Assembly (NCBI GenBank): GCA_050945315.1
Contig: JBMNSS010000001.1
Span: forward strand, 1,620 to 65,619
Length of the DNA: 64,000 nt
Direction: 5' to 3'
From: Limnochordia bacterium
Lineage (GTDB): Bacteria > Bacillota > Limnochordia > DTU080
Both the position numbers and the translations under genes were made by a program. The notes below the pieces were generated by a model. That model searched no databases, had not been told where the DNA came from, and saw nothing but the letters and a program-made list of their open reading frames with translations. Positions 18,883 to 52,300 of the stretch are shown here, in pieces (position 1 is the stretch's first letter; each line of letters starts with the position of its first letter).

Positions 18883-20382
18883 TCAGCTTTTGTAAAGACC
18901 TCGCGCGCTGTGCAAGTCCTCAAGGGTTGCAAGAAGATGAGGATCAAAGTGTTCCCGTGTACGGAGTATCTCTTGCATCGAGCGCTCGTGGAATCCATCC
19001 CCGTTTTTAATCTCACATTTGACTGCGTTTACATATCTTTCGACTAAGTTCAATATGCGTGATTCCATCGGTATGGCCTGTCCTTGCAGACCTTCCGGGT
19101 AGCCTGAACCGTCATAGTTTTCATGATGGTAACGTACGGCGCGCAGCACTTCATCAGGCACTCCAAACATGACCAACATCCGCTCGCTGATCTCAGGGTG
19201 ACTGTTTCCCGTTTTTTCAGAAGAATCTACATCGCTATCCGTGGTCAATCCCACATCCCGAAGGCGCGCCGCCGTCATAAGCCGGGAAAGACATGTCTCA
19301 CCTAAGCCTATCGCATCACCTAGCACCCGGGCGTAGTGGATCACAAGCTCAAGGGTGCGCAAAGACTCCGGATATAGGCTTTCCAGAGTATCCATAAGCC
19401 CCAGCAGAGTTGTGAGGTGACGCAAGAGCTCTTGATCATGCCATTCAACGACAATGCGTTCCCGCTGTAGATTCCGCCTGCGGATTACGTTGTTCAACTC
19501 TTCGGTGGCGAGTGCCCATTCGCGCCACATCTGACTTTGGGCGAAGTAGGTCGTGGCACGCTGAAGGTATCCCAAAGCGGTGCTTCGATCACCTTTCAGG
19601 GTAAAGATGGAGCCGAAAAGGCGGCACAATCGAGCTACTTCGGTCCGGTCCATCCAACCCATGTTATTCCACAAAATGTGAAGCGCGGCGCTTCCTTGGT
19701 GCAGAGCCTCAGGGACATCGCCCCGCTTGAAGTGCAAACGCCCCAACTCAGAACGCGCGTACGCCCTCAGTGCTACATCATGCACTGAATCCAAAGCGGA
19801 TAACGCGGCCTCCAAGAGCCGTTCAGCCGTGTCCAAATCGCCCTGCTCCATAGCAATAATCCCCAGATTGTTGAAACACATCCCCACTTCGGTGCGACTG
19901 CCCATTTTGGAGAACATATCAAGGGCGCATTCCAGATAACCGCGAGCCTGATTCCATTCCTCATGATTGAGCAGGCTGACACCTGCAACGAGTTTGACCG
20001 AAGCGTGCAAATCCAAAGGACCGTCCGAGGGAAAGAGCTTTACGGCTTCAAGAGACAACGGCAGTGCCAGATCTACATCCCCCATGCGCAAATAGCTGAG
20101 GGCAAGATTATTCAGCACTCGACTGTATTCAGGTTGCCTGTTGCCCACTTTGGCACAGAAGGTTTCTGCACCTCGAAAGTGATGGAGAGCTTTCGTATAA
20201 TCACGTAGTTCAAGAAAAAGAGATCCCAAGGCGTTATGGACGCGCACCCCATATCCGGCAGGCGATGAAGGTGATAACATGTCGTGCGCCTTCTCCCAGG
20301 CATCACGAGCCGCGAGCATAAGACCGCGACTGAAATAGGTGCACCCAAGAAGAAGGTGCCGTTCAATCTCTGCTACAGACAT
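18883..20382 (-). CDS. TPR-repeat protein with C-terminal degenerate HD-GYP domain
   Basis: N-terminal ~330 aa of TPR-like repeats. The C-terminus carries HHENYDGSGYPEGLQG (the HD-GYP signature), but the canonical LHDIGK is replaced by LRDVGL. The start is trimmed to an ATG preceded by GGGGTG. Confidence 0.75.
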   Translation of the reverse strand: MSVAEIERHLLLGCTYFSRGLMLAARDAWEKAHDMLSPSSPAGYGVRVHNALGSLFLELRDYTKALHHFRGAETFCAKVGNRQPEYSRVLNNLALSYLRMGDVDLALPLSLEAVKLFPSDGPLDLHASVKLVAGVSLLNHEEWNQARGYLECALDMFSKMGSRTEVGMCFNNLGIIAMEQGDLDTAERLLEAALSALDSVHDVALRAYARSELGRLHFKRGDVPEALHQGSAALHILWNNMGWMDRTEVARLCRLFGSIFTLKGDRSTALGYLQRATTYFAQSQMWREWALATEELNNVIRRRNLQRERIVVEWHDQELLRHLTTLLGLMDTLESLYPESLRTLELVIHYARVLGDAIGLGETCLSRLMTAARLRDVGLTTDSDVDSSEKTGNSHPEISERMLVMFGVPDEVLRAVRYHHENYDGSGYPEGLQGQAIPMESRILNLVERYVNAVKCEIKNGDGFHERSMQEILRTREHFDPHLLATLEDLHSARGLYKS

Positions 20383-20423
20383 AGCACACCCCGGCAAACG
20401 TGATTTTTGTGCGAATCTTGTCG

Positions 20424-20452
20424 TTGACAATTCCGAAAGCTCACTGTATAAT
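20424..20452 (+). promoter_or_regulatory. consensus sigma-A-type promoter
   Basis: TTGACA (20424-20429), 17-nt spacer, TATAAT (20447-20452), lying in the divergent intergenic region. Confidence 0.55.
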
Positions 20453-23417: not shown

Positions 23418-24023
23418 TTACAGCTGCCAAAGGCAGCGGCTCATGATCTTCCGATAGATCCTGGAATTCTGCCGAAAAGACTCGTAATCCCGTTCGGCAA
23501 GAGCTTGATCGATCGCTGCCCTGGTCAAGATGGCTTGAACGGCCAGATCAATTTGTTCCCGAACGATCTCACGCAGCACGGCATCGACGTTGGCCACCGA
23601 CCTTTCAGGTAAGCTCGGGGATGACTCCAAGACATCCAGGTACCAAGCCGGCATCGATCCGCAGAATGAAAAAGTGACGTAAAGCTCACTTCGAAAGGTG
23701 CGTAAAGGCGCTATAGCCTCCATGGGCTCGTTAACACATAAATGACGTTCACGTCGCAGCCGGCGGATAAGCTCGCCGTTGACAATACGCACTTCCTCAC
23801 GTTGGTGAACTCCCAGTTCGAGTTCGAAGCCCACGCGAGGACTCCCTAACTCCGAAACAAGCATGGTGTTTGGTAAGTACTCCCGGTTCCGCACGAAGGT
23901 GATCCGCTTGAGAAGATCCGGCGTGTCTAGTATGAACTGCAGCAAATATTTGCTCATCGGATGCTTCAAAGGAGTGCGAATGAAGTTGCGGATAGCTAAC
24001 TCTTTTAGCTTCATCTTTCTCAC
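23418..24023 (-). CDS. hypothetical protein
   Basis: 201-aa ORF with no recognisable motif; coding-like composition. It lies downstream of lepB on the same strand. Confidence 0.45.
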   Translation of the reverse strand: MRKMKLKELAIRNFIRTPLKHPMSKYLLQFILDTPDLLKRITFVRNREYLPNTMLVSELGSPRVGFELELGVHQREEVRIVNGELIRRLRRERHLCVNEPMEAIAPLRTFRSELYVTFSFCGSMPAWYLDVLESSPSLPERSVANVDAVLREIVREQIDLAVQAILTRAAIDQALAERDYESFRQNSRIYRKIMSRCLWQL

Positions 24024-24131
24024 CCCGCTGTTGGTTCATTAGAATATATGGGCCAGGAGGGGTTTACATGCCTGCAGAAGTACCATGGAAAGGTATCTCG
24101 AAAGAGTAATCGTCAAGGCGGGAGGTAGTGC

Positions 24132-24890
24132 ATGCGCGTTACGTTCTTGGGAACAGGCACATCGCATGGCATCCCAGTGATAGGTTGTGACTGTTCCGTA
24201 TGTCGCTCGCCGCTGCCGGAGAATAATAGACTGAGATCAAGCATATGGTTGAATTTCGCCGAGCGGAACGTGGTGATTGATACCGGTCCTGAATTCCGAC
24301 TGCAAGCCCTGCGCCATGGGGTGCGCCGACTGGATGCCGTGCTTTTTAGCCACGCTCATGCTGATCACATTTTTGGCTTTGATGACATCCGCCGTTTTTG
24401 CCAACTACAGGGCGAAGCAATTTCGGTGTACGCCAGTCCGGAGACGCTTGACACGCTACGCTGTGCTTTTGGCTATATATTCGATCTTGATCGCAACGAT
24501 TGGACCATCCCCCGTGCGGTGCCACATGTAATTGATGGCCCTTTCTCCCTTTTTGGCCAAGACATCGAGCCATTGACGGTGTATCATGGCAAAGCATCGG
24601 TCACGGGTTTTCGTATCGGTGACTTCGCCTATGTCACCGATTGCAGCATGATCCCGGATCAGGCGATGGCTTCTCTGCAAAACCTGGAGGTGTTGGTGTT
24701 AGGTGCATTGCGATATAAGCCGCATCACACTCACTTCAGCATCGGGGAAGCGATTCAGGCCATCGAGACCCTACAGCCCAGACGCGCCTATCTCACACAT
24801 CTGTGTCACGAAGTGGACCATGCAGAGCTTCTCGCGTCATTACCCGCCGGTGTTCAGCCTGCTTATGACGGTTTGGTTGTTGATGTATGA
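24132..24890 (+). CDS. MBL-fold metallo-hydrolase (PhnP-like)
   Basis: LFSHAHADHIFG (HxHxDH) plus downstream His/Asp ligands; 252 aa; GGAGG Shine-Dalgarno. Confidence 0.85.
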   Translation: MRVTFLGTGTSHGIPVIGCDCSVCRSPLPENNRLRSSIWLNFAERNVVIDTGPEFRLQALRHGVRRLDAVLFSHAHADHIFGFDDIRRFCQLQGEAISVYASPETLDTLRCAFGYIFDLDRNDWTIPRAVPHVIDGPFSLFGQDIEPLTVYHGKASVTGFRIGDFAYVTDCSMIPDQAMASLQNLEVLVLGALRYKPHHTHFSIGEAIQAIETLQPRRAYLTHLCHEVDHAELLASLPAGVQPAYDGLVVDV

Positions 24891-24987
24891 TTGAGTGGCT
24901 TCGAACCGATTCGGACCCGACTGAGGCGTCTTATCAGTGAGCGGGAGCAATGGGCGCGACAACGGATAGAGACCGGGAGGGATCGAA

Positions 24988-26025
24988 GTGCCTAAGAGCC
25001 ATACACGTTTAGCTGCACTTCACATACCGCATGCGGATTCGGATGATTTGCATCGCGTCTGCGAGGTGTGCATGAACTTCTCGCCGACGATAGAACCCAC
25101 TCCTCCCCATGGTATCCTTGTCGACTTTTCCGGCAGTCGTCGTCCCGATCTTTTTTTGCTCCAAAGCGAAGCGGTTGCTGCTTGCCAAAAAAACGTATTT
25201 ATCAGCATGGCTTCTACAAGGTGGGTAGCCCGCTGCGCCGTCGCATATCTACAGCGGAAGTCTGCGAGCAGTTCTTTGCCAAAGCCTTTGACCATTGCCG
25301 ACAACGGCGAAAAAGGATTTTTGGCCCCTTTGTCCGTGAGATATCTGGCGCAGGGTGAGATTGCGGATGCCGAAAGGCTGATAGAGCGTCTTTTGGATTT
25401 GGGCATCTACACCTTTGATGATCTGGCAAGCGTACCACTCAAAGATCTCACCGCCCAATTTGGCACAGACCGGGGTCCTCTTTTGCACCGTTTGGCGACA
25501 GGGGTTGATCCCCGTACAGTTCGCCCCTTATACCCTCCGCGACAGGTGGTTGCTACATTCAGCGCGGCGCCTGACAGTCCCGGTATTTTAAACGCTTACG
25601 CGATCGATCAGGTATTGATTCATCTGAGCAATGAACTGGCCGCTGATTTGGCGCAACAAGGAATGGCAGCCCGGCGGATACGGCTTGAAATCACATGTCG
25701 GAAAGACGTTTTACACTTTTCTTGTTTTCTGCGGCAGCCTGCGTTTCAACAAGAAACCCTGCTGGAGGCGGCCAGGCGATTGTGGTCTTCGGCATCTGCC
25801 ATGGATCCCGTATTGGAGCTCAAGCTCTATGGTGAGAATCTCGAGCGTCCGCGAATTGAGCAAGCGGCCATATTTGACGCCCAAACAAGTATCAACAATG
25901 AGCTGGCAACTGTGGTGCGCGCCGTGCAAAACAGATTCGGTGTGCGAGCGCTGCAAAAAGCGAACCAACTCCCTCTTTCTCGCCGAGAGTTGGTTCGCTC
26001 AATGTGGGAACGCGAAAGACTGTGA
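24988..26025 (+). CDS. imuB: ImuB-like inactive Y-family DNA polymerase homologue (N-terminal polymerase-like part only)
   Basis: N-terminus LAALHIPHA...ILVDFSGS...; the FLAPLSVRYLAQGE and ERLLDLGIYTFDDLASVPLKDLTAQFG blocks parallel mycobacterial ImuB (FLAPLSIRQLA..., LWRMGLRTIGQFAQL...FG). It lacks the Y-family catalytic DMD/SIDE acidic residues. GTG start preceded by GGGAGGG. Only 345 aa. Confidence 0.65.
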   Translation: MPKSHTRLAALHIPHADSDDLHRVCEVCMNFSPTIEPTPPHGILVDFSGSRRPDLFLLQSEAVAACQKNVFISMASTRWVARCAVAYLQRKSASSSLPKPLTIADNGEKGFLAPLSVRYLAQGEIADAERLIERLLDLGIYTFDDLASVPLKDLTAQFGTDRGPLLHRLATGVDPRTVRPLYPPRQVVATFSAAPDSPGILNAYAIDQVLIHLSNELAADLAQQGMAARRIRLEITCRKDVLHFSCFLRQPAFQQETLLEAARRLWSSASAMDPVLELKLYGENLERPRIEQAAIFDAQTSINNELATVVRAVQNRFGVRALQKANQLPLSRRELVRSMWERERL

Positions 26026-26033
26026 ACAGCTAA

Positions 26034-27308
26034 TTAGCGACCTACTCCTTTGAGAAAGTAGACCGTGTCCAGGTGAACTCGCTCAGCAACATCCACAATG
26101 TCTTTTTTCGTTACACGCTTCAGGCGGACGATCAACTCCTCGGTTGTCTCTTTGACACCCTCCATTGACCCGCTCAGGTGCGTTATCATTTGCGCCAGAG
26201 GGTTATCTTGTGTCAGCAGAGCCTGTGCGATAAGCCTACTGCGTGTCGCATTCATCTCATCATCGGAGATGTCCCCTTGGCGGATGGCATCCACCTGCTT
26301 CAGCATTATCTCTAACGCTTGATCGTAATTTTTGGGATCAATACCGGCATATGCCAGCACATACCCCTTGTTTGCGTTGTAGCCTGAGCTCGCCTGATAG
26401 GCCAGGCTGGCCTTTTCACGCACATTGACAAACAGTTTTGAGTGCACGAAACCACCCAGAACACCGTTCAAAAAGTACATGGCACAGCGTTCAGCGTCCG
26501 AATAGGTAATGTCCGTACGGAAGCCGAGCACCAACCATCCCTGCCCCATCACTTCTTCATCAACGACTGTGCGAACCTGTGCTCTTCCGGGAAGGACTAC
26601 AGTCCTGGGCAGCGCTTTGGGAGCTCTCGTGGGTAAGGAAAAGCCACCTACCACTTTTTTCAGTTCATCGCGCTCCACATCGCCCACTATATAGATATCG
26701 ATAGGGGCCTCACGAATCTGTCTTGTGTGATTGCGCAGGAGAATCTGTGGTGTTAATTCCCGTACCTGTTCTTCCGTACCGAGTTCATGGAGCCGGAACG
26801 GTTCATCGCCGTACATTTCCTCGATACAGCGCAATATGGCCCATCTGGCCTTAACATTGATCAAAGAACGAATCCGTCCCACCTGCAATTGCTTCTCTTG
26901 CTCCACGTACTCGCCGGCCAACCCCCCGTTTTCTATGACGGGCGACAGAATCACTTCTCGTAATAGCCGCAAACCCTGACTCAAGATAGGCGTACCTACA
27001 TAGCGATCACCGGGGAGGTTGAGCAGAAACCAAGAAATCTGGCGATCCCCACGCTTTTGTACGCCCGTTCCCAGATGGGCTCCGTATAACGAGGCAAGTT
27101 CTCGCTCTAAAGCCATGGCTGTGGGCCATAGAGTGTTTCCCCGTCGCAGCACCCGGGGGAGAATACCCATCGCGGCCACATTCTCCGGTGAAAGCTCATT
27201 GTGGAAAAAGACAGCCGCGCTCGTACGTTTGAAGGTGGGCACAGCGTGCACAAAGAGCCGAACCTCCGGCCCCAGCGATATTTGTTGGAACCCTTGAGTC
27301 ATGCTCAT
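26034..27308 (-). CDS. M16-family peptidase, non-catalytic partner subunit
   Basis: Insulinase-fold pattern but no HxxEH; translationally coupled to the upstream M16 gene, whose stop is 2 nt before this start. Confidence 0.8.
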   Translation of the reverse strand: MSMTQGFQQISLGPEVRLFVHAVPTFKRTSAAVFFHNELSPENVAAMGILPRVLRRGNTLWPTAMALERELASLYGAHLGTGVQKRGDRQISWFLLNLPGDRYVGTPILSQGLRLLREVILSPVIENGGLAGEYVEQEKQLQVGRIRSLINVKARWAILRCIEEMYGDEPFRLHELGTEEQVRELTPQILLRNHTRQIREAPIDIYIVGDVERDELKKVVGGFSLPTRAPKALPRTVVLPGRAQVRTVVDEEVMGQGWLVLGFRTDITYSDAERCAMYFLNGVLGGFVHSKLFVNVREKASLAYQASSGYNANKGYVLAYAGIDPKNYDQALEIMLKQVDAIRQGDISDDEMNATRSRLIAQALLTQDNPLAQMITHLSGSMEGVKETTEELIVRLKRVTKKDIVDVAERVHLDTVYFLKGVGR

Positions 27309-27309
27309 A

Positions 27310-28608
27310 TCAGTGCCCTCCTTTCAGCGGCTCCACAATGGAAACCACACGATTATCTTCTCCGATGAGCTGCTCCAGACATTTCTGGGCATCCTCAAGA
27401 CGAACCTCATCAAGCAGCGTTCTCACATCCATAAGATCTAACTCGTTAAAACGATGAGTGATGTAAACACCGGCCAATTGCTCCGGATCATCTAGTAAAG
27501 CGGAAAAGGAACCTATTTCTTGGCGACGAACGGTCTCGAAGACTTCGGCCTGCAGACCTTCTTGGCAAGCTCGCCGCAGATTGGCGGTGATTTCCGTCAC
27601 AAAAGCGTCGACATCTTCTGTTTCGCCGCTGATCCATACATAACCGATACTCCGATACGACGAGTATCCGAAACGAAAATCTTCCGTGACGATGCCTTTT
27701 TCGTACAACTGCCAATAACCCGAGTTTACTTTTCCCAAGACCGCGCTCAAAGCGAGATCAGCGGCGATAAGCTGTTTATGATAGTCAGGGCTGTCAGCCG
27801 ATAAGGTGCCTTTGAATCCCATCATCACGAGAGGTCGGGAGACCTTGAGCTCAATTCTCGTCTCCGGATGGACTACGCTGTCTGGTTCCGCGGGAATAAC
27901 TCGGCTAATCGGTCCCCGTGGTGTGTAGTCTCTTGCCGCGAGATCCTTTTCCACCATTGAAAGCACCTCGGCAAAATCCAGCTCCCCGACCACAACGAGC
28001 ATCATGTTACTGGGATGGTAAAATGTATCGTGGCATTTGTAAAGAAGCTCCTTGTTGATACGGGCAATGGAATCGGGCGAGCCAATGGTTCGTATTCTGG
28101 CAGGATGCACATGGAACATGGATTCCATGAAGTTGTAGTAGACCATTCGCGAGGGACTGTCGAGTCCCGTTTGAATCTCTTGCCCGATGATCCCTTGCTC
28201 TTTGGCGACGCTTTCATCGGTGAAATACGGATTCTGCACGAAGTGGAGCAGCAGACTGAGTCCTTCGTTGAAGCGCTCTACCGTGGTAAAGTGGTACACC
28301 GTGTAATACGATCCCGTATAGGCGTTTGTAGTCATACCCATTTGCGAGAAACGCTGTGATACATCGGTGCCATCGGGTTCCTCGAACATCTTATGTTCGA
28401 GGAAGTGAGCAATACCGTCAGGGACATTCGTCGGTTGTGACTGTCCGGGTGTTATGAAGGTCGAATCCATGCCACCGTAATTTGTGGCCAGGGCGGCAAA
28501 TTTCTGTGCAAAGCCGGGTTTAGGAAGCAAGACCACGGTCAGCCCCGAAGGCAACCTGCGCTCCAGTACTTCCTGCCCCATCACCATCCTTTTCACATTC
28601 ACAAGCAA
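27310..28608 (-). CDS. M16-family zinc peptidase, catalytic subunit
   Basis: HFLEHKMFEE (HxxEH inverted zincin motif) with the downstream E ligand region. Confidence 0.85.
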   Translation of the reverse strand: MLVNVKRMVMGQEVLERRLPSGLTVVLLPKPGFAQKFAALATNYGGMDSTFITPGQSQPTNVPDGIAHFLEHKMFEEPDGTDVSQRFSQMGMTTNAYTGSYYTVYHFTTVERFNEGLSLLLHFVQNPYFTDESVAKEQGIIGQEIQTGLDSPSRMVYYNFMESMFHVHPARIRTIGSPDSIARINKELLYKCHDTFYHPSNMMLVVVGELDFAEVLSMVEKDLAARDYTPRGPISRVIPAEPDSVVHPETRIELKVSRPLVMMGFKGTLSADSPDYHKQLIAADLALSAVLGKVNSGYWQLYEKGIVTEDFRFGYSSYRSIGYVWISGETEDVDAFVTEITANLRRACQEGLQAEVFETVRRQEIGSFSALLDDPEQLAGVYITHRFNELDLMDVRTLLDEVRLEDAQKCLEQLIGEDNRVVSIVEPLKGGH

Positions 28609-28750
28609 CGTCTCCTCCTATATGTGTTCCGCTAAACCGTATAGTGCCTCTTCTAAAGAGGATTGACCCCAGTGATCTTTTCACGGTGTTTGGCTACAAC
28701 GGCGTCTATTCCCTTCAAAAATTTCCAGGATCCGGTCATGGCAGCTTACT

Positions 28751-28800
28751 TGACGCCCCCGAACACCTGTTGTATGATGAGCGCACCAAACACCTGTTCT
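28751..28800 (+). promoter_or_regulatory. sigma-A-type promoter with two tandem GAAC-N4-GTT-type boxes (putative LexA/SOS operator)
   Basis: TTGACG (28751-56), 16 nt, TATGAT (28773-78) with an upstream TG. CGAACACCTGTTGT (28760-73) fills the spacer, and a near-identical CAAACACCTGTTCT sits at 28787-28800. Confidence 0.5.
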
Positions 28801-28815
28801 TATGTGGGGGGTGTC

Positions 28816-29070
28816 ATGCCTTTGAGCAGACTCATCAATCAACGTATCAATGCAACTTCCGACCGTCATGGGGCCCCCTTGCGTTTTTCTTGGCATACCA
28901 ACTGGCATCGTGTCACGCGCATATATGAAACATGGCGTGATACCGGCAGCTGGTGGGAAGGTGAAGCCGAAAAGGTATTTTACCTGCTACAGACCGATGA
29001 CGGCGGTACCTACGAAGTATATTTTGACCTCCAAGAAAAATCATGGTACCTTTACAAAATCATTGATTGA
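28816..29070 (+). CDS. small protein resembling the ImuB C-terminal (DnaE2/ImuA-interaction) region
   Basis: 84 aa from an ATG preceded by GGGGGGTG. W/Y-rich block WHRVTRIYETWRDTGSWWEGEAEKVFYLLQTDDGGTYEVYFDLQEKSWYLYKIID matches the pattern recalled for ImuB C-termini. Its stop is 13 nt before the dnaE2 ATG. Confidence 0.45.
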   Translation: MPLSRLINQRINATSDRHGAPLRFSWHTNWHRVTRIYETWRDTGSWWEGEAEKVFYLLQTDDGGTYEVYFDLQEKSWYLYKIID

Positions 29071-29083
29071 GACGGTGTCATCC

Positions 29084-32000
29084 ATGTATGCTCACCTGCA
29101 TACTCATTCGCCATTCTCATTTCTTGACGGCGCAGCGTCTATGGAGTCATTGCTTACTCGCGCCGCGGAGATCGGATGCCGGGCATTGGCCGTTACTGAT
29201 CACAATAATCTTTCAGTCACAGTACGCTTCCATAAATTAGCTGCTGAGATAGGCATAAAACCCATTCAAGGATGTGAAATCACTATCGATAACGGTTGTC
29301 ACCTCACCCTTCTTTGTCAAAACCGTACGGGCTATGCCAATCTCTGCCGCTTGGTTACCCGAGCTCATCTTGACGCACCGCGTGGGTTACCCCAGGTCTC
29401 CCGCAGACTTTTGGAAGAGCACAGTGAGGGCCTCATCGCTTTGTCCGGATGTCGTCACGGCGAAGTTGCCGCTTTGATGTTGCAGGGTCAAAACCGGCAG
29501 GCGCTGGAGGCGGCTTCTGCTTATGCGTCTGCCTTTCCCGGACGTTTTTATATCGAGGTTCAAGATAATCTTCTCCCTCGCACCCGCTCGCTTAATCGTC
29601 ATTTGCGTGATCTGGCAGAATATCTTGATTTGCCCATGGTAGCTACCGCCAACGTACACTATGCTTACAAAGAACAATTTCCCGTTCACGACATACTTAC
29701 GTGCGTGCGTACTTTGACCTGTCTCCAAAGCATACATCCCGCGAGACGGCTCAATGCGGAAAACTATCTCCTCACGTCGGAAGAGATGGCGGATCGTTTT
29801 CGCGATTTTCCGCAAGCGTTACGCGGCACGCTTGAGATAGCTGACCTGTGTGAGACGGCCATTCCCTTGGGTGAGCGTCTGTTTCCTTTCTTCAACACAC
29901 CTGACGGCAGCAGTGCCATTCAGTTCTTGCGGCAACTCACGTTCCAAGGTGCACAAGAGCGTTACGGATCGGTTACGGCGGCCATACGCGAAAGATTGGA
30001 ACACGAATTACGTATCATCGCCGCTCTTGATGTGGCGGACTACTTTCTCGTCGCCTGGGATGTCGCCCGTTTTGCGCGTGAACGAGGCATCTGCTATGCG
30101 GGACGCGGCTCCGCTGCGGATTCGGCCGTTGTATATTGCCTTTATATAACAAATGTTGATGCCATCAGCAGAGGTTTGCTTTTTGAGCGGTTTCTCAGTT
30201 TGGAGCGGGCTCAACAGCCGGATATCGATATCGATTTTGATGCCCGTTACCGGGATGATATAGCGCGCTATGTCTACGCCAAATATGGCGAAGATCATGT
30301 CGCCTCCGTATGCACATATCATACCTATCATGCTCGTTCGGCTTTGCGGGACTTTGGCAAAGCCATGGGCCTTCCGCTTCAAGAAGTGGAAAAAGTGGCC
30401 AAGGCGTTTCCGCATGTCCCTGCAGATGGCATACGCAAAGCATTGATTCGCTATCCCGAGCTGCAAAACAGCGGCCTGTCTTTTGAGCGCTATGAGAAGC
30501 TCTTTGACCTTGTTGAACAGGTGGCCGGTTTTCCGCGCCATATCGGTACACACTTGGGCGGCTTGGTGATCAGTAACCGCCCCCTGGTAGAAGTGAGCCC
30601 ATTGCAGATGGCCGCCAAGGGCATGCGCATCATTCAATTCGACAAAGATGACATAGAAGAACTGGGACTGATGAAACTGGATCTACTGTCACTGCGCACC
30701 TTGTCAGCCGTTCAGACTGCTATAAAAGACATTAACACCAAACAGACAGCTACAGGTGAGCCTCTCGTAGAATACGCCACAATCCCACTGGACGATGCTT
30801 ACACGTATGCAGCCCTCAATCATGGAGAGAGCATTGGTGCTTTTCAACTGGAGAGTCCCGCGCAAAGAGCGTTGCAGAGCCGCTTGGGGGCAGAAAACAT
30901 AGAAGACATTGTGGCCAGCATTGCTCTGATTCGTCCCGGACCCATACAGGGGAATATGGTCGAGCCTTTTATCGCTTACAGGAACGGCCATTGTGCTGTC
31001 AGTTACGTTCATCCTGACTTGGAGCCCATTCTCGCCAAGACCTATGGTGTCGTTCTTTTCCAGGAGCAGGTGATCGAGATTGCGGTCAAGATCGCCGGCT
31101 TCAGCCCCGGTGAGGCCGATCAGCTGCGCAAAGCGATGACTCATTTTCGCTCACAAAAAAAGATGGATCAGCTTGGACGGGAGTTCATAGCCAAGGCCAC
31201 AAAGCGCGGTGTTGACCAAGAGGTGGCCGAAACTCTGTATTCTTACATTGTCAGCTATGCAGGTTATGGTTTTTGCGAAGCTCATGCCGCGGCTTTTTCC
31301 GATACAGCCTATAAAACGGCCTATCTGGTAACTCATTACCCGGCTGAGTTTTTTGCAGCCATTCTCAGTCACCAGCCAATGGGCTATTATCCGCCGGCTA
31401 CGATCGTTGCAGAAGCCAAACGCCGAGGTGTGCGCATTCTGCCTCCGGACGTGAACAGAAGCGGGCTGCGCTTCACCGTAGAGAACGGAGCCATCAGGGT
31501 CTCATTGACACAGGTGAAAGGTTCATCACCTGCCATAGCTCGATCAGTGATCTCCTCCAGAGCGGAAAGCCCGTTTCAATCCTTCAGGGACTTTTGCCGA
31601 CGCGTTCATCTCCCGCGCGATGTCATAAAAAACTTGATTCAGGCGGGAGCATTTGATACGTTGTATGCCAACAGGCGCCAGTTGCTCTGGCAGCTCCAAG
31701 AGACTCTGGCCATGTCCGGAGAAAAGGGGCAACCTGCATTGCCTTTCGGATCGGAGCGCGGCGAGATCCGCCAAGAGCTATCTGATTATCCGGCGTTTGA
31801 AAAAGCGATACATGAGGTGACTCTGCTCGGGTTCTCTCCCGAAAAGCATCTTATGCAATTTTTCCGTCCGCAACTGGTGCAACGCGGCATAAAAACCTGC
31901 GGTGAAATAAGCAGTGGTCACGTGGAAGGTGCGGTTGGGGTAGCGGGCATAGTGATTCGCCCACACCGACCTCCGACCAAGAGCGGACGCACCGTAGTCT

Positions 32001-32179
32001 TCCTCGGTTTGGAAGACGAGTTCGGCCTTTGCGATATCACCATATTTGAAGATGTCTACAAGCGATATGCACGCGAGATCTTCCATTCTCCGGCGTTGAC
32101 GGTGTGGGGGCGCATCTCGCGACGTGGGAAAGGGATCAGTGTGATCGCCGACCGTGTTAAACCTCTGCTGATCGGGTGA
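29084..32179 (+). CDS. dnaE2: DnaE-type DNA polymerase III alpha, short (DnaE2/ImuC-like, 1031 aa)
   Basis: PHP domain starts MYAHLHTHSPFSFLDGAA; polymerase palm/fingers motifs are present. The ~1030-aa length suggests an error-prone DnaE2 rather than the replicative DnaE1. The in-frame 78-codon upstream extension (from 28850) is rejected because the PHP domain begins at the Met. Confidence 0.85.
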   Translation: MYAHLHTHSPFSFLDGAASMESLLTRAAEIGCRALAVTDHNNLSVTVRFHKLAAEIGIKPIQGCEITIDNGCHLTLLCQNRTGYANLCRLVTRAHLDAPRGLPQVSRRLLEEHSEGLIALSGCRHGEVAALMLQGQNRQALEAASAYASAFPGRFYIEVQDNLLPRTRSLNRHLRDLAEYLDLPMVATANVHYAYKEQFPVHDILTCVRTLTCLQSIHPARRLNAENYLLTSEEMADRFRDFPQALRGTLEIADLCETAIPLGERLFPFFNTPDGSSAIQFLRQLTFQGAQERYGSVTAAIRERLEHELRIIAALDVADYFLVAWDVARFARERGICYAGRGSAADSAVVYCLYITNVDAISRGLLFERFLSLERAQQPDIDIDFDARYRDDIARYVYAKYGEDHVASVCTYHTYHARSALRDFGKAMGLPLQEVEKVAKAFPHVPADGIRKALIRYPELQNSGLSFERYEKLFDLVEQVAGFPRHIGTHLGGLVISNRPLVEVSPLQMAAKGMRIIQFDKDDIEELGLMKLDLLSLRTLSAVQTAIKDINTKQTATGEPLVEYATIPLDDAYTYAALNHGESIGAFQLESPAQRALQSRLGAENIEDIVASIALIRPGPIQGNMVEPFIAYRNGHCAVSYVHPDLEPILAKTYGVVLFQEQVIEIAVKIAGFSPGEADQLRKAMTHFRSQKKMDQLGREFIAKATKRGVDQEVAETLYSYIVSYAGYGFCEAHAAAFSDTAYKTAYLVTHYPAEFFAAILSHQPMGYYPPATIVAEAKRRGVRILPPDVNRSGLRFTVENGAIRVSLTQVKGSSPAIARSVISSRAESPFQSFRDFCRRVHLPRDVIKNLIQAGAFDTLYANRRQLLWQLQETLAMSGEKGQPALPFGSERGEIRQELSDYPAFEKAIHEVTLLGFSPEKHLMQFFRPQLVQRGIKTCGEISSGHVEGAVGVAGIVIRPHRPPTKSGRTVVFLGLEDEFGLCDITIFEDVYKRYAREIFHSPALTVWGRISRRGKGISVIADRVKPLLIG

Positions 32180-32260
32180 AGTAACGTCGTACAGGCGTGT
32201 CGGCGGCCCGCTTCGGGTGGACCGCCGATATCATCATTGCGTCACATCCAGGGCAGCGAT

Positions 32261-33088
32261 CTAATACACACCTATTTCACGCAAGTATTCAAGGGAGCGC
32301 TGGACCCGGCCGTGATGCAAATCCAAAGTCCGCTCCTCGCCCTCGATTCCTTCCAGCTCCAGGCTGAAGGGACCGTAGAATCCGGCCTGATCAAAGACTC
32401 GGAAGATGGCGGGAAAGTCAATGCTTCCCTCACCCAAGGCCGGGAAGTACCAGTCCTTATGTCTGCGGCGACTGTCCTTGAGATGGGCATGCACCACGTA
32501 CTCAACCAATCCCTCAAGTTCGGCTACGATGTCAATGTCTTCGTTGTAGTAATACAGATTGGCGGTGTCAAAATTGATCCGGATATTACTGTGCTTCAGA
32601 TCGCGCATGGTCTGCAGTCCCCCTGCCGCATCGGGAACCAGGGGCGGATGAGTCTCCAGACAGATGATCATCCCACGAACCAGGGCATACTCGGCCAGCT
32701 TCAGAAGGTTATCATAGACCGTGGATGAACGTTCCGGTGCTGAAACCGTATAAAAACGCACTCCGAGTTCTTCGGCGATGTCCATCTGCCGCTTAAGAAT
32801 CTCAACGCCTTCGTCGGTGCGAAGGTCACCGTGGCCAAAGGCTGAGATAATGCGTATTTCATGCTCTTTCGCCAGATTCTTAAACTCCTCCAACTGTTCA
32901 GGTGTAGTGCGTTCGCCGATCATGCTGAGAGGATGTCCTCCCGGCAAAGGCTTCACATCCGGAGCCGGCACTGACCACAATCCGAGTTCCATGTGTTTCA
33001 AACCCAGTTTCGCCGCTCCCAGCAAGGTTTCCCTGGCACCAAACCGTCCATAGGAATTGGTGAACACTTCAAAGACGCGCTGCAACAT
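32261..33088 (-). CDS. sugar phosphate isomerase/epimerase (xylose-isomerase-like TIM barrel)
   Basis: 275 aa with TIM-barrel family His/Glu/Asp metal ligands; second paralogue in the window (compare 13155-13922). Confidence 0.8.
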   Translation of the reverse strand: MLQRVFEVFTNSYGRFGARETLLGAAKLGLKHMELGLWSVPAPDVKPLPGGHPLSMIGERTTPEQLEEFKNLAKEHEIRIISAFGHGDLRTDEGVEILKRQMDIAEELGVRFYTVSAPERSSTVYDNLLKLAEYALVRGMIICLETHPPLVPDAAGGLQTMRDLKHSNIRINFDTANLYYYNEDIDIVAELEGLVEYVVHAHLKDSRRRHKDWYFPALGEGSIDFPAIFRVFDQAGFYGPFSLELEGIEGEERTLDLHHGRVQRSLEYLREIGVY

Positions 33089-33264
33089 ATATCCCCCTAT
33101 TCTCGCTCTGGACTCATGTCTATTCTTTCGTCAATCCTATCTGGGCTCCTTGTTATTCACGCCAAGCAAAGCGAAGCATCTCACTCAGGGGCAGGAATAC
33201 TCCGCTGTTTCAGCGAACAGGAGTCACGAATAAAGCCCTATTGTCTAGGAGGCTTGAGTCGTCT

Positions 33265-34002
33265 ATGGTGCTCATGTCGAATAACAGGCGGACACCCTTC
33301 GCTTGCCACATTGCTTTTCTCCTCTGTGTGCTTATCATCGCCATTAGTATGCCTTTGCTTGCTGCGACGCGGGCACCGGCTACAAGCAAGGCTATGCCTA
33401 CCCGAAATGCTCCGAGCATAGCCGCCATATTACATAACGTTGAGAACTGTTTTTCCGAAATCAAGGATCTCACCGGTGTCGTCGACCTTGAGCAGTACAG
33501 CACTGATGGTTCGGTCGTTCAAGTTCAGACGACGGTTCAGGCTGTATTACCCAGCTTATTGCGCTTGGACTTCGTAAAGCCGGAGACTTTTGCGGGCACG
33601 TTTTACGTCCTCGACCGTAACACAAATCAGATAATGCAGTATTCACCCATCACCGAGCAGGTGATCGTCTCCTCCATAGAGCAGACACTGTCCGAGCGAT
33701 TTGTGCCTACAACTGTAGAGCAGTTGTTCAGCCTTCCCTCACCTGAAGACTACAACCTTAGCGTGCTTTCCACCGAACAGCATTTGGTCGGTGTCTTGGC
33801 CAAGGCCAAGAACGATCCCGCGTCTCCTTACTTCCATTTTTGGATCGACCAAGACACCTGGATAGTCTCGAGAATGCACGTTTTTGAAGCTCAGGGGCAA
33901 CCCCTTTTCACGATTCGGCTGCGTGATGTCAAGATCAACCGCAGTCTTGTCGAGGCTCAACTGAAGAGACTGCCTGCCGGAGCCGTCACGGTCTATCGTT
34001 GA
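33265..34002 (+). CDS. secreted LolA-like/DUF4367-like protein
   Basis: Signal peptide HIAFLLCVLIIAISMPLLAA, then an all-beta LolA-like pattern; AGGAGG Shine-Dalgarno 9 nt before the ATG at 33265. Confidence 0.5.
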   Translation: MVLMSNNRRTPFACHIAFLLCVLIIAISMPLLAATRAPATSKAMPTRNAPSIAAILHNVENCFSEIKDLTGVVDLEQYSTDGSVVQVQTTVQAVLPSLLRLDFVKPETFAGTFYVLDRNTNQIMQYSPITEQVIVSSIEQTLSERFVPTTVEQLFSLPSPEDYNLSVLSTEQHLVGVLAKAKNDPASPYFHFWIDQDTWIVSRMHVFEAQGQPLFTIRLRDVKINRSLVEAQLKRLPAGAVTVYR

Positions 34003-34042
34003 GTGCATAGCTGAGTACATATACGAAGGGAATCCTGCAAGG

Positions 34043-37000
34043 ATGAGCATCAGTCAAACCGTCGTTCGACGCCCAGTGGCGGTAGCCATGGGCGTTGCAG
34101 TCATTCTTCTGTTGGGTATTCTGTCGCTCACGCGTCTGGAGTTGGATCTCCTCCCCAATTTGAGCCTGCCTATCGTCGGAGTGATCACCGTATATCCGGG
34201 GGCAGCCCCGAGTGCAGTTGAAGGGGATATCACTACCCCGATGGAAGCGGCCGTGGCTACCGTCTCAGGGCTGAAATCGTTGGAAAGCTATAGCATGGAG
34301 AATGCATCCGTGATAGTGGCCAATTTTGGCTGGGGCGTGGATTCGATGCAGGCCATCAATGATATCAAGACCCAGCTGGCCACTGTGACCCATCTGTTAC
34401 CTGCTGATGCCATGGAACCTGTGGTGACCAACGTTGATCCACGTATGCTTCCCGTCATGAAGATTGGCGTCACAGGCCTTGATGATATCACAGCTCTCAC
34501 CAAAGCGGCTGAGGAGCATCTCATAGGTCGGATCGAGCAAATCCCGGGAGTGGCCAGAGTAGGCCTTGCCGCCGGAGTACGTCCTGAAATCTCCGTGTTT
34601 TTTGATACAGAAGCACTGCGAGCGAGCAACACCCCTCCGGCGATGCTCTACGAGCTTCTCAGACAGCAAAACGCTCTTATACCCGCCGGTGTCTTGGAGG
34701 ACAACAGCGTTCGCTACCATGTAAGAGTCGGCAATCCTCTAAGCAGCGTGGAAGAGATTCGCGATCTGGTTATAGGGGAGAAAAAAACGGCGGGAGTTGA
34801 GGCCGTCGGACTCGCCGCCCTTATTCCTCAGATGCTGTTTCTGAAAGACGTGGCCACTGTTGTAGAGGGAACCAGCCCACAGGAGTCCTATGCACGGGTA
34901 GACGGTGAGCCGGCTGTCATTTTACAGGTCTACAAACAATCAGGTGCGGGCAGTGTTTCCGTGTCTCGGGCTGTGCGAAGTGCATTGGCAGAGCTCAATC
35001 AAGACATGGATCACGAGATTCAGTTGTGGGTAGTGGGCGATCAATCAGAGTTCATCATAGACGCGCTGAACAACGTGAGAGATGCCGCCATAGTAGGCGC
35101 CGTGTTGGCGGTGGCGGTGCTCCTTCTGTTTCTGCGCAGTCTGCGCAGCATCCTAGTGGTAGCCATCTCTATTCCCCTGTCTATAGTGGCCGCTCTGATC
35201 ATGATGTACGCCAGTGATCTCACCCTCAACCTGCTTAGCATGGGAGGACTTGCCCTGGGCATTGGGTCCTTGGTCGACAACTCGATTGTCGTCCTTGAGA
35301 GTATAATGCGGCACCGACAACAAGGTCTGAGCGCCCAAAAAGCGGCTGAGATCGGCACCTCCAAGGTTGCTCTGGCTATATCAGCCGGAACCGTGACGAC
35401 CGTAGTGGTCTTTTTGCCCCTGGCCTTCCTGGAGTCTACCGCGGGCCGATGGTTCCGCGATACGGCCTTGACTGTCACCTTTTCTCTGCTGGCGTCTATG
35501 CTGGTGGCCGTTACCGTGGTTCCTGCCGCAGCCGGACGTTTCCTGAGAAAACCGTTGCGCCATACTGCGGACGAAACCTCCTTCGGGTGGATTGAACGGT
35601 TGAAAGAAAGGTATCTGCGAAGTCTCAGTCGGCTGCTGAATCGTCCGGTTTGGCTTTGGGCTTTGGCGTTGGTGATGGTCGTCGCCGGTTTGAGCGCTCC
35701 CCGCTATATGCCTTTGGAGCTTCTGCCTAGCGTAGACGGAGGGGCGATCAACGCCACTTTAACCATGCCGGCCGGAACGCCGATTCGAGTGACCAACGGT
35801 GTTGCCGGGCAAATCGAAAAGACCGTGACTCAAATCGAGGATGTCATCTCTGTGTGGTCTCAGTTGGGCCAAGACAGCGATGATGTCGTCCAGCTTTTCT
35901 ACGGAACCGGGCCGCATGTGGCCAAGATGCAGTTTCTCTTGCAGCCAAGAATGCAGCGGGAACGATCCATAGGAGACATCGCCGATGAGATAAGGCAAGC
36001 GGTCGAGGGAATCGACTTGTTGGGCGGTCATCTGAGTATTAGTACGGAGCGCATGACAGATGCCCTCGGTGAGGCTTTCTCTCCCGGGGTCACCATTCAG
36101 GTGAGCGGAAAGGATCTTGATGCTCTCGAAACTCAGGCCGATCGCATAGCTCAGGGCTTGAAAGATGCAGGCGGATTTACCGAGATCACTACATCGGTAG
36201 ATCAAAGGCAACCCGAGTTGCTTTTTACCGTCGACCGGACAAAAGCACTCCTGGGCAGTATGACTACCAATGTCGTAGGGATAACCCTTCGCGGGGCCTT
36301 GAGCGGTCTTGAAGCCACTCGCATACAGCGCAACGGAGAGAGCATCCCGGTTGTTTTGCGAGCAAAGCCGGAAGAAGTCGATGGCATTGAGGCCCTTCTT
36401 CAGATGTCTATCCAGGGAGTCTCGGGCACCGGACAAGATCCTGTGCCTGCGGTGCGTTTCGGGCGGGTGGCCACCGCGGAAGAGACCACAGGACCGGTGA
36501 CAATTCAGCATGTTGATCGTGTGAGAACGGTAACCGTCCACGCTCGTCTGGACGGAATAGACTTGAGTGAAGCAAAACGGAGAGTCTCGGACATCATCGA
36601 CGGTCTTGAGGTTCCTGCACAGATCGGTGTCCGTCTCGCCGGAGTTCATGATACCATCCAGGAAGCTGTAGATGAGCTCACATGGGTGCTCATGCTGGCC
36701 ATTCTGTTGGTATACATGGTAATGGCCGCTCAGTTTGAATCGCTCTTGTATCCGTTGATCGTCATGATTGCCGTTCCGCTTGGCCTGGGAGGCGGCCTTG
36801 TCTGTCTGTGGATTTCAGGTCAAAGCATTGGTGTCTCCGGGCTGATGGGCTTGATAGTCCTGACGGGTGTTGTGGTGAACAACGGCATCGTTATGGTCGA
36901 TGCGGCCAACCAGGCGCGGCGCGACGGAGCTGATCTTGATCAGGCCGTTCTCATGGCCGCCGAGCAGAGATTGCGACCGATTCTCATGACCTCCTTGACC

Positions 37001-37186
37001 ACCATCTTTGGCTTGATACCTCTTGCGTTGGGCTACGGAGAAGGGACCGAGTTGCAGAGACCATTGGCCATCGCCTATATGGGAGGAATGGTCTTTTCGA
37101 CACTGCTTACTCTGTTTCTCGTCCCCTCCGCCTATCGTCTGCTCACGCTTCGTCGGGCTGAGACTCCGAGTCAGGAGACTCTGTGA
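34043..37186 (+). CDS. RND-superfamily efflux transporter permease (AcrB/SwrC-like)
   Basis: 1047 aa with 12 TM helices, two large periplasmic loops and an AcrB-family internal repeat. Confidence 0.9.
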   Translation: MSISQTVVRRPVAVAMGVAVILLLGILSLTRLELDLLPNLSLPIVGVITVYPGAAPSAVEGDITTPMEAAVATVSGLKSLESYSMENASVIVANFGWGVDSMQAINDIKTQLATVTHLLPADAMEPVVTNVDPRMLPVMKIGVTGLDDITALTKAAEEHLIGRIEQIPGVARVGLAAGVRPEISVFFDTEALRASNTPPAMLYELLRQQNALIPAGVLEDNSVRYHVRVGNPLSSVEEIRDLVIGEKKTAGVEAVGLAALIPQMLFLKDVATVVEGTSPQESYARVDGEPAVILQVYKQSGAGSVSVSRAVRSALAELNQDMDHEIQLWVVGDQSEFIIDALNNVRDAAIVGAVLAVAVLLLFLRSLRSILVVAISIPLSIVAALIMMYASDLTLNLLSMGGLALGIGSLVDNSIVVLESIMRHRQQGLSAQKAAEIGTSKVALAISAGTVTTVVVFLPLAFLESTAGRWFRDTALTVTFSLLASMLVAVTVVPAAAGRFLRKPLRHTADETSFGWIERLKERYLRSLSRLLNRPVWLWALALVMVVAGLSAPRYMPLELLPSVDGGAINATLTMPAGTPIRVTNGVAGQIEKTVTQIEDVISVWSQLGQDSDDVVQLFYGTGPHVAKMQFLLQPRMQRERSIGDIADEIRQAVEGIDLLGGHLSISTERMTDALGEAFSPGVTIQVSGKDLDALETQADRIAQGLKDAGGFTEITTSVDQRQPELLFTVDRTKALLGSMTTNVVGITLRGALSGLEATRIQRNGESIPVVLRAKPEEVDGIEALLQMSIQGVSGTGQDPVPAVRFGRVATAEETTGPVTIQHVDRVRTVTVHARLDGIDLSEAKRRVSDIIDGLEVPAQIGVRLAGVHDTIQEAVDELTWVLMLAILLVYMVMAAQFESLLYPLIVMIAVPLGLGGGLVCLWISGQSIGVSGLMGLIVLTGVVVNNGIVMVDAANQARRDGADLDQAVLMAAEQRLRPILMTSLTTIFGLIPLALGYGEGTELQRPLAIAYMGGMVFSTLLTLFLVPSAYRLLTLRRAETPSQETL

Positions 37187-49258: not shown

Positions 49259-49337
49259 ACAAGAAACCTCCCAGCAAACCGTAGTCACATAAGGCCTCAC
49301 GGCGAACCATCTTCCTGCCGAGCCTTTTTCGAAAAGC

Positions 49338-50279
49338 TTAGTCGTCCGACTCCCGCAAGGACAGGTTCAGGGCCGCGAGTTTCTCTTTGACTTCTTGTAA
49401 CGACTTCTTGCCTAGATTCCGTACCTTCATCATATCTTCTTCGGTACGGCGTGTAAGCTCTTCCACGGTGTTGATTCCCGCTCGCTTCAGGCAGTTGTAG
49501 GAACGAACGGAGAGGTCGAGTTCTTCGATGGTCATCTCCATCAAACGATCCTTCTCTTCCTCTTCCTTTTCGACCATGATCTCCAGATCGCTGGCGCTCT
49601 CGGTCAAATCCATGAACAAGCGTAGGTGCTCGATCACGATTTTGGCTGAAAGACTGACTGCTTCATTCGGAGCGATACTCCCATCCGTCCATACTTCAAG
49701 AATAAGACGGTCGAAGTCTGTGCGTTGTCCGACGCGAGTACTCTCCACTTGGTAGCTCACTTTGGTGACCGGACTGAAAATCGAGTCAACGGGGATCACA
49801 CCGATGGCGTGATTCTCACCTTTGTTACTCTCCGCCGAGACATAGCCTCTGCCGCGTTCCAGAGTCATTTCGAGTTCGAGGCGGCCACCGCGATCCAAAG
49901 TAGCGATGTGAAGATCGGGATTCAAAATCTCTACCTGGCTGGGAACTTCAATATCAGCCGCACGGACTTCGCCCTCTTGCGTGGCCACGATACGCGCCGT
50001 AACGGGCTCGTCACTGTGCAGTTTCAAAAGTAAGTTCTTCAGGTTCAAAATGATCTCCGTGGTATCCTCGACAACCCCGGGGATAGTCGAGAACTCATGG
50101 AGAACACCGTCGATCCGTACGGAAGTTACCGCGGCCCCGGGAAGCGAGGAAAGCAGAACGCGCCGCAATGAATTGCCAAGCGTGTTTCCGAAACCTCGCT
50201 CCAGAGGTTCCACAACGAATCTGCCGTAATTTCCGTCGAGCTCCGTTGTCTCTATTCTCGGCTTCTCAATCTCAAGCAT
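49338..50279 (-). CDS. rpoA: DNA-directed RNA polymerase alpha subunit
   Basis: [14 protein letters not shown]...[17 protein letters not shown]; alpha NTD and CTD. Confidence 0.95.
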
Positions 50280-50375
50280 CGCCTAAGACCCCCTTCAAAC
50301 GTCCATCTGATGACGCCGAGTCCAGCGGCGCCAACCGTCCCTGGCTGGCCTAGTGTTTGAGTGGCTGCCGAGACA

Positions 50376-51002: not shown

Positions 51003-51041
51003 ATTCCTTTTGTCACACCTCCTGCATAAATCCGCTGTCAG

Positions 51042-51437: not shown

Positions 51438-51449
51438 TTATCTTCCCTC

Positions 51450-51824: not shown

Positions 51825-51842
51825 GCATTTCCACCCCCGCTA

Positions 51843-51956: not shown

Positions 51957-52003
51957 AACCGACGCCTCCTTATATGGATACCAGCAACTGCGGTAGTCGT
52001 CAT

Positions 52004-52222: not shown

Positions 52223-52300
52223 CGTCGAACACCCCCTTAGGATTACGCTAGATGTCTTACGCGCACACTCAAACATTTTATCACATATGAGTGTAGCCCG

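Follow-up and report, generated by a model that had tools for sequence, protein, structure and literature searches.

A probable ImuA-less translesion-synthesis cassette with a split ImuB, dispersed by an M16 peptidase gene pair in a Limnochordia bacterium

Gene content of the locus

The 64,000-nucleotide stretch of Limnochordia bacterium DNA analysed here, referred to at its full length as the window (contig JBMNSS010000001.1 of assembly GCA_050945315.1), carries between positions 24132 and 32179 three plus-strand genes of a candidate translesion-synthesis cassette: one for an inactive Y-family polymerase homologue (iPolY), one for a stand-alone counterpart of ImuB's C-terminal domain (ImuB-C), and one for a DnaE-type DNA polymerase. 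An earlier sequence-only reading had described a mutasome-like locus with the ImuB function divided between two genes, preceded by a metallo-beta-lactamase (MBL)-fold hydrolase and interrupted by two minus-strand M16 peptidase genes. The coordinates of all its open reading frames (ORFs) are confirmed in the window, as are the hydrolase upstream and the M16 pair that interrupts the cassette.

24132-24890, plus strand: MBL-fold hydrolase (Pfam Lactamase_B_2, 6.7e-37)
24988-26025, plus strand: inactive Y-family polymerase homologue (iPolY, ImuY-like scaffold), 345 amino acids (aa) (Pfam and Pol IV models)
26034-28608, minus strand: YfmF/YfmH M16 peptidase-like pair, outside the module, between iPolY and imuB-C (NCBIfam)
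26034-27308 and 27310-28608, minus strand: the M16 proteins of the pair (YfmF 384 bits, YfmH 406 bits; both above curated cut-offs)
28816-29070, plus strand: stand-alone ImuB-C (DUF6504), 84 aa (Pfam PF20114)
29084-32179, plus strand: DnaE2-type accessory C-family polymerase, assigned to the DnaE2X group, 1031 aa (domains, NCBIfam, identity)

A gap of 2.79 kb holding two minus-strand genes separates the genes for iPolY and ImuB-C, which are thus co-located and not part of one operon, while dnaE starts 13 nt past the imuB-C stop. For comparison, GTDB species genomes were scanned with an ImuB-C profile (a 9-sequence alignment), which gave at least 70 loci, the species of the window not being among them; the listed loci belong mostly to Syntrophomonadaceae, Thermincola, Symbiobacterium, Thermaerobacter and uncultured Clostridia, and are denoted below by L numbers where they must be told apart.

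Labelled hypothetical at NCBI, the 345-aa protein gives weak but significant matches to Pfam IMS_C (1.7e-5) and IMS_HHH_1 (2e-4) and matches the NCBIfam Pol IV models at about 1e-14, with the alignment running from about model position 86 onwards; it carries FLAPLSVRYLAQ at residues 111-122 and DLGIYTFDDLA at residues 137-147. Its AlphaFold model (predicted local distance difference test score, pLDDT, 86.7) retrieves Rev1, Dpo4/DinB, Pol iota and Pol eta with Foldseek at E-values of 1e-20 to 1e-13, and a PDB sequence search with this protein and with the DnaE found no ImuB or DnaE2 structure. The protein was aligned with DinB and ImuB, and with about 60 partner proteins from the related loci. 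The DinB positions D8, D10, D103 and E104 are replaced or deleted, the four DDDE columns reading --HG in the contexts ALHIP... and PPHGILVDFSG (gaps or His-Gly), so that there is no DinB-type active site and the catalytic acidic residues are missing, as had been claimed. The DDDE signature occurs in none of the approximately 58 partner Y-family proteins from the listed loci, as against all DinB controls; the E. coli DinB reference used is approximate, and four database DinBs (P0013, P0015, P0016 and P0030) give the identical DDDE signature.

Besides its active site, the 345-aa protein has lost about 70 alignment columns of the finger region. The same region is gone in 32 of 61 partner iPolYs from the listed loci, mostly those of Syntrophomonadaceae, where 7-19 residues stand in place of the 76 in DinB, and it is retained in the homologues of two loci whose surroundings resemble those of the window, P0009 of L007 (42% identical) and that of L020 (40% identical). 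Since these two retain the region, the deletion appears to be recent and independent in the lineage of the window. What remains in the model is a reduced palm, the thumb and the little finger, up to about residue 290, followed by a disordered linker (293-299), a helix (301-317) and a terminal helix (332-344), and it is in this last portion that three further features fall.

25861-25875, plus strand: beta-clamp-binding-like motif QAAIF, residues 292-296, in the disordered low-pLDDT linker (alignment and model)
25900-25962, plus strand: RecA-NT-like helix ELATVVRAVQNRFGVRALQKA, residues 305-325 (model helix 301-317, and position)
25966-26022, plus strand: conserved C-terminal tail QLPLSRRELVRSMWERERL, residues 327-345 (alignment; model helix 332-344)

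The motif QAAIF, which aligns with QLVLGL of DinB and QLALF of ImuB and has recurrent counterparts of the form Q-x-x-[LIV]-F at the same site in partner iPolYs, would be the part that binds the beta clamp. The helix that comes after it occupies the site of the RecA-NT-like motif described by Timinskas and Venclovas (PMC6511836), and is consistent with, though not proof of, such a motif. The tail QLPLSRRELVRSMWERERL is almost invariant within the close clade, and a family-wide pattern RRExxLxxWDPxR (SRRELVRSMWERERL in the window) recurs after the RecA-NT-like helix in about 50 partner iPolYs (L010-L078), which makes the tail a candidate docking peptide for the stand-alone ImuB-C or for DnaE2. 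The protein stops 20 residues past the RecA-NT-like helix and has no fused ImuB-C domain. The sequence-only reading, which had it lacking the C-terminal region of ImuB, was accordingly correct as to the ImuB-C domain, and not as to the rest of that region, as the clamp-like motif, the RecA-NT-like helix and the conserved tail are all kept.

The missing domain has its counterpart in the 84-aa protein, which exceeds the gathering score of Pfam DUF6504 (PF20114) (40.3 bits against 24.2; 4e-10) and shows the W/Y-rich block that had been likened to ImuB C-termini. It had been taken for unannotated, which is not the case: NCBI holds it as an 82-aa "DUF6504 family protein" (MGI6081266.1), 82 aa being its length if the start is the TTG at 28822. 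An exhaustive phmmer search (E<=1e-3) gathers 379 family clusters at 50% identity, nearly all of 75-95 aa, together with two members of about 400 aa that are reduced Y-family proteins with a C-terminal DUF6504. As the Pfam DUF6504 model finds no match at E<=0.01 on canonical ImuB proteins of about 500 aa, the link to ImuB required a custom family hidden Markov model (HMM) and hhalign. Trained on 143 stand-alone sequences, the HMM aligns with the final 65 or so residues of seven out of seven ImuB-sized proteins, at 11-24 bits and always at the C-terminal end, and DinB controls score negative against it; hhalign pairs the stand-alone family with ImuB C-termini over 65 columns (E 3.4e-6, probability 87.7%). 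The 84-aa protein is moreover 36% identical to the ImuB-C of Kyrpidia tusciae (E 1e-13), matches that of Alicyclobacillus acidocaldarius and also the C-terminal end of Thermogutta's "very short ImuB1"; a PDB sequence search with it gave nothing at E<=10. By these profile and sequence comparisons the 84-aa family is homologous to the extreme C-terminus of canonical ImuB, in keeping with the resemblance first proposed.

That the 84-aa frame is instead a chance ORF or a non-coding leader upstream of dnaE might be suggested by its shortness, by its overlap with a longer DnaE frame (28850-32179) and by the disagreement among gene callers over its start (82, 84, 110 or 143 aa). The idea is effectively refuted by the Pfam score above gathering, the 379 homologous clusters of the same size, the conserved placement ahead of dnaE across about 60 genomes and the all-beta, six-stranded fold of its model (pLDDT 90.5), and by a ratio of nonsynonymous to synonymous substitution rates (dN/dS) of 0.12-0.20 against three orthologues at 49-88% aa identity, which marks imuB-C as a real and constrained gene. 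Two longer plus-strand ORFs overlap at the imuB-C/dnaE junction, 28850-32179 (DnaE, 1109 aa) and 28663-29070 (ImuB-C, 135 aa), and account for the discordant public gene calls (DnaE of 1031 or 1060 aa; ImuB-C of 82, 84, 110 or 143 aa).

The DnaE polymerase and its PHP site

The 1031-aa polymerase has PHP, polymerase core, fingers, HhH and OB-fold domains, with nothing beyond the OB fold, and the polymerase aspartates are present (PDIDID, KLD). Among the NCBIfam models it fits "error-prone DNA polymerase" best, end-to-end at 923.8 bits and thus narrowly short of the cut-off of 939. The PMC12926913 supplement prints the N-terminal 400 residues of the reference proteins; across this part, identity is 51.5% to the DnaE2X of K. 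tusciae and 47% to that of A. acidocaldarius, compared with 33-37% to the DnaE2A proteins of Pseudomonas, Caulobacter and Thermogutta. Judged by these 400 residues and by its domain architecture, the polymerase of the window belongs to the DnaE2X group. With the 84-aa family corresponding to the ImuB C-terminus and the DnaE N-terminus closest to DnaE2X, the proposal that the ImuB function is split into two genes stands.

The PHP signature of this DnaE, HHDHEHCNH, retains eight of the nine canonical ligands, the remaining one being changed from Asp to Asn within DnaE residues 187-193 (ATANVHY, 29642-29662). Among the DnaE genes found downstream of imuB-C in the listed loci (L010-L078), 54 encode the same HHDHEHCNH and five the fully canonical HHDHEHCDH, and the Asn variant occurs also in the DnaE2X proteins of Sphaerobacter and Dehalogenimonas. 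A DnaE2-sized polymerase with its PHP domain intact, as the sequence-only reading put it, is therefore right in so far as the protein groups with DnaE2X, and only nearly right as to the site, which is canonical at eight positions of nine. Such a site, unlike that of DnaE2A, is uncommon among DnaE2 enzymes at large, though not within this group.

These properties bear on a different account of the gene, in which it encodes a replicative Pol III alpha of the DnaE type with PolC as its partner, as in Clostridia, and in which its neighbourhood with imuB-C would be no sign of a mutasome. Several observations fit it: a near-canonical PHP site is characteristic of clostridial DnaE1 and atypical of DnaE2 (PMC12926913), the NCBIfam scores lie near each other (923.8 bits for the error-prone model, 903.4 for the replicative one), NCBI labels the protein "DNA polymerase III subunit alpha", and the 64-kb window contains no second dnaE and no polC. 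We nevertheless regard it as very improbable. The protein stops at the OB fold, leaving about 85 C-terminal positions of the replicative NCBIfam models unmatched; it shares 47-51% identity with published DnaE2X proteins; its orthologues stand behind imuB-C and an inactive Y-family gene in about 60 genomes, usually with a LexA box; and the JGI label is "error-prone DNA polymerase". The Asn variant, too, is found in the DnaE2X of Sphaerobacter and Dehalogenimonas, whose genomes, going by the published listing, also carry a DnaE1, as do all seven DnaE2X genomes among the rows examined of supplementary file 6 of PMC12926913. By analogy with relatives and with the literature, the genome from which the window comes would likewise be expected to have a replicative DnaE or PolC, recA and lexA, and to be without imuA.

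Related loci, LexA-like boxes and the origin of the split

The association of the three genes extends well beyond the window. A same-strand Y-family ORF ends between -39 and +485 bp from imuB-C in 57 of the 70 listed loci, and in nearly all of them the next gene encodes a DnaE of about 1020-1040 aa, 47-56% identical to that of the window, so that the co-occurrence of the trio across genomes, a point left for checking by the sequence-only reading, is borne out. The layout of the window itself recurs in the anaerobic-digester relatives L001-L004 (79-90% identical) and, with one extra flavin adenine dinucleotide (FAD)-dependent oxidoreductase gene adjoining the M16 pair, in L007 (42-68% identical). 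In the uncultured Clostridia genome of L020, whose proteins are 40-64% identical, the order is MBL-iPolY-imuB-C-dnaE-AP2, a contiguous trio without the M16 pair and with flanks shared with the window, namely the MBL gene upstream and a TIM-barrel gene downstream.

Upstream of the imuB-C gene of the window lie three short sites.

28750-28778, plus strand: promoter-like site TTGACG-17-TATGAT for imuB-C-dnaE2 (10 of 12 positions)
28760-28773, no strand: LexA (Cheo)-like box 1, CGAACACCTGTTGT, within the promoter spacer (one mismatch to GAAC-N4-GTTC)
28787-28800, no strand: LexA-like box 2, CAAACACCTGTTCT, directly past the -10 element (one mismatch to GAAC-N4-GTTC)

The first of these is the top promoter-like match within 23900-32400 and is conserved in L001 and L005, and the LexA-like boxes before imuB-C are conserved in L001-L004; the counterpart of box 2 is CCGAACGTGTGTTTG in L007 and ACGAACGCTTGTTTG in L020. 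The form AACANNTGTT occurs three times in 64 kb, where 0.44 would be expected, and two of the three occurrences are at the imuB-C promoter. In the wider family, 29 of 58 listed loci have a perfect GAAC-N4-GTTC (typically CGAACATATGTTCG) within the 250 bp upstream of their Y-family gene, and 13 more have a one-mismatch version there; 261-bp windows drawn at random from these loci give a background of 1.1% for perfect and 7.4% for one-mismatch boxes. As this upstream box is the Gram-positive LexA box, the cassette appears to be an SOS operon in this group. A palindrome upstream of the iPolY gene in the window, CGAACCGATTCG (about 24901-24912), was considered and not counted, its half-site spacing being wrong for a Cheo box.

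The arrangement in L020 also indicates how the window came by its gene order. Since this syntenic locus is without M16 genes, the YfmF/YfmH pair appears to have been inserted in the lineage of the window; and since the 121-bp gap before imuB-C in L020 already holds a promoter-like site and two LexA-like boxes, the insertion would have fallen between two pre-existing transcription units. A comparable event has occurred in L022 (2095-13384; Thermincola ferriacetica metagenome-assembled genome (MAG) BM5_bin.4), where two minus-strand multihaem cytochrome genes, of 453 and 1693 aa, split the cassette at the same iPolY/imuB-C junction, a perfect CGAACATACGTTCG stands 53 bp before imuB-C, and the sister MAG L026 is contiguous; this split is independent of that in the window. 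The cassette thus seems to consist of two separable transcription units that were split twice independently at the same junction, imuB-C-dnaE2 keeping a LexA-type box each time. All three genes are under purifying selection, with dN/dS of 0.05-0.20.

The probable mutasome and its surroundings

Taken together, the locus is very likely a translesion-synthesis mutasome that lacks ImuA and is of the imuY-imuB-C-dnaE2 type (DnaE2X-iPolY-ImuB-C-RecA), dispersed by the insertion of yfmH-yfmF into a contiguous cassette. Direct support comes from the identities of the genes, the loss of the Y-family active site, the ImuB-C homology found for the 84-aa protein, the affinity of the polymerase to DnaE2X, the linkage in about 60 genomes, the LexA boxes of the relatives and the purifying selection.

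A module of this composition has been described before. The stand-alone ImuB-C was recognised by Aravind et al. (PMC3765255). A lexA-imuY-(80-aa gene)-dnaE2 operon under LexA/RecA control was reported in Deinococcus deserti, where ultraviolet (UV) mutagenesis requires ImuY, DnaE2 and RecA (Dulermo et al., 2009, as reviewed in PMC8072749), and a Kyrpidia-type operon with an inactive PolY, a stand-alone ImuB-C and DnaE2, without ImuA, led to the proposal that RecA substitutes for ImuA through a RecA-NT-like motif (PMC6511836). A further study named the combination DnaE2X-iPolY-ImuB-C-RecA, termed it split ImuB, and modelled ImuB-C on the PHP domain of DnaE2 (PMC12926913). The window has the same three components and no ImuA match, as in D. 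deserti (Deide_1p01880-1p01900) and K. tusciae (ADG05750/49/48): an inactive PolY bearing a putative clamp motif, a candidate RecA-NT-like helix and a conserved tail, an ImuB-C of about 80 aa, and a DnaE2 of about 1020-1095 aa without a C-terminal domain. Control by a LexA box is shared by the relatives of the window, and the iPolY of the window is 25% identical to that of A. acidocaldarius. Unlike in those cassettes, the genes of the window are non-contiguous, a 2.6-kb minus-strand YfmF/YfmH pair standing between iPolY and imuB-C; the locus is without a lexA gene; iPolY is without fingers and a LexA-like box of its own; and the PHP site, with eight of nine canonical ligands and the Asp-to-Asn change, has fewer substitutions than those of K. 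tusciae and A. acidocaldarius. The architecture, which had been held to be unusual for a mutasome, is therefore so only in its gene order, owing to the M16 insertion, its composition matching the published module.

With the canonical ImuA-ImuB-DnaE2 (ImuC) system of Mycobacterium, Caulobacter and Pseudomonas, the module has in common the logic of a dead Y-family scaffold that brings DnaE2 to the clamp, a homologous ImuB-C fold and, probably, membership of the SOS regulon, whereas in the window ImuB-C is a separate polypeptide, no ImuA or ImuA' was detected at the locus, and the DnaE shares only 33-37% identity with DnaE2A. Stand-alone ImuB-C beside a Y-family gene under SOS control is also known from lexA-imuB-C-polY of Geobacter sulfurreducens and from clostridial pairs of a YqjH-type PolY and ImuB-C (PMC6511836); in those pairs the Y-family partner is active and there is no DnaE2, whereas in the window the partner is dead and DnaE2 is present.

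Both the protein contacts and SOS induction in this organism are suggested by what published AlphaFold models and the D. deserti experiments show for similar systems. DNA damage would lead to cleavage of LexA and so to de-repression of the imuB-C-dnaE2 promoter, as the two LexA-like boxes on the promoter-like site imply. The dead, finger-less Y-family protein would serve as the scaffold, tethering the complex to the beta clamp through QAAIF and binding RecA, in place of ImuA, through its RecA-NT-like helix; the tail and thumb of the scaffold would touch ImuB-C and DnaE2, the small beta-barrel ImuB-C would dock onto DnaE2's PHP domain, and DnaE2 would perform the lesion-bypass synthesis.

A number of observations weigh against this reading. 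The near-canonical PHP site, which sets the enzyme apart from most DnaE2 proteins, leaves proofreading possible. One-mismatch boxes, taken singly, are not above chance in the window (24 found, 26.5 expected), and both imuB-C boxes are of this kind; the consensus GAAC-N4-GTTC is that of the Gram-positive LexA box and may not be the Limnochordia motif. The iPolY genes of the window and of L001 have no LexA-like box upstream (the best match has 3 mismatches) and no TATAAT, the regions examined in the window being 24891-24987 and 24024-24131, so that the two units may not be induced together. The RecA-NT-like helix (ELATVVRAVQNRFG...) is placed by hhalign onto RecA residues 2-24 in the right register, yet with a weak P of 0.012. 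By tblastn no match to recA, lexA or imuA was found in the 64-kb window or in any relative locus with its flanking 10 kb on either side (±10 kb), in agreement with the earlier finding of no ImuA in the window; the B. subtilis LexA query was approximate, and the negative for LexA is weak.

The absence of an iPolY box is in the window and not throughout its kin, L007 (420-490) and L020 (8600-8690) having TATAAT followed by a one-mismatch box upstream of their iPolY genes. The scaffold of the window may be expressed constitutively or together with the MBL gene, and regulation may differ between the two halves of the cassette. One could go further and take ImuB-C and DnaE2 as an SOS-induced pair, with the 345-aa protein a decaying or re-purposed relic outside the complex that has lost its LexA box: the gene lies 2.8 kb off in a separate transcription unit, its product has lost about 70 palm and finger residues, its dN/dS (0.20 against L001) is the highest of the three genes, and some DnaE2 groups are reportedly linked to ImuB-C only (PMC12926913). 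We consider such uncoupling unlikely. The ORF is unbroken in five clusters at 51-79% identity with a dN/dS far under 1; the clamp-like motif, the RecA-NT-like helix and the C-terminal tail are the best-conserved parts of iPolY; synteny with imuB-C-dnaE2 persists down to 42% identity (L007); the same finger deletion in 32 of 61 partner iPolYs, mostly from contiguous operons, is compatible with function; and even drastically reduced ImuBs still hold thumb, little finger and ImuB-C (PMC12926913).

A variant of the preferred, mutasome reading takes its start from the PHP site. If the clostridial and Limnochordia DnaE2X had a working 3'-5' exonuclease, the enzyme would be an SOS-induced, proofreading gap-filling polymerase and not a mutator, and a constitutive finger-less scaffold would await the induced ImuB-C-DnaE2; this is a speculation to which we would give rather low odds, and which, if true, would set the module apart from the mutasome paradigm in both regulation and function. 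As a mutasome, the locus extends the ImuA-less split-ImuB type to Limnochordia, uncultured anaerobic-digester Firmicutes. Its relatives indicate that Syntrophomonadaceae, Thermincola, Symbiobacterium and related Clostridia commonly carry the module, usually behind a Gram-positive LexA box. Mechanistic understanding is left unchanged by all this. For annotation, a DUF6504 gene beside a DnaE of about 1030 aa should be read as ImuB-C and DnaE2, and a neighbouring "hypothetical protein" as the inactive Y-family scaffold.

Among the neighbouring genes, the MBL-fold hydrolase was considered as a part of the module and rejected: it adjoins iPolY only in the lineage of the window and in L020, and the promoter and LexA-like box of L007 and L020 fall between the two genes, so that it is probably unrelated. 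It scores 321.7 bits against the "GPMC system MBL fold metallohydrolase" model, under the cut-off of 360. The NCBIfam equivalogs matched by YfmF and YfmH carry the description "EF-P 5-aminopentanol modification-associated". Downstream of dnaE, the AP_endonuc_2 gene was likewise rejected as an endonuclease IV, given its likeness to sugar epimerases and isomerases. Three other regions of the window, to which no tie of the module was made, encode a TPR and HD-GYP-type cyclic-di-GMP phosphodiesterase-like protein (18883-20430, minus strand), a LolA-like protein with an RND transporter (33241-37186, plus strand) and, at the far end, a ribosomal-protein/secY/adk/map/rpoA cluster (49300-64000, minus strand), the presence of which, with its ribosomal-protein, secY and rpoA genes, identifies the locus as chromosomal.

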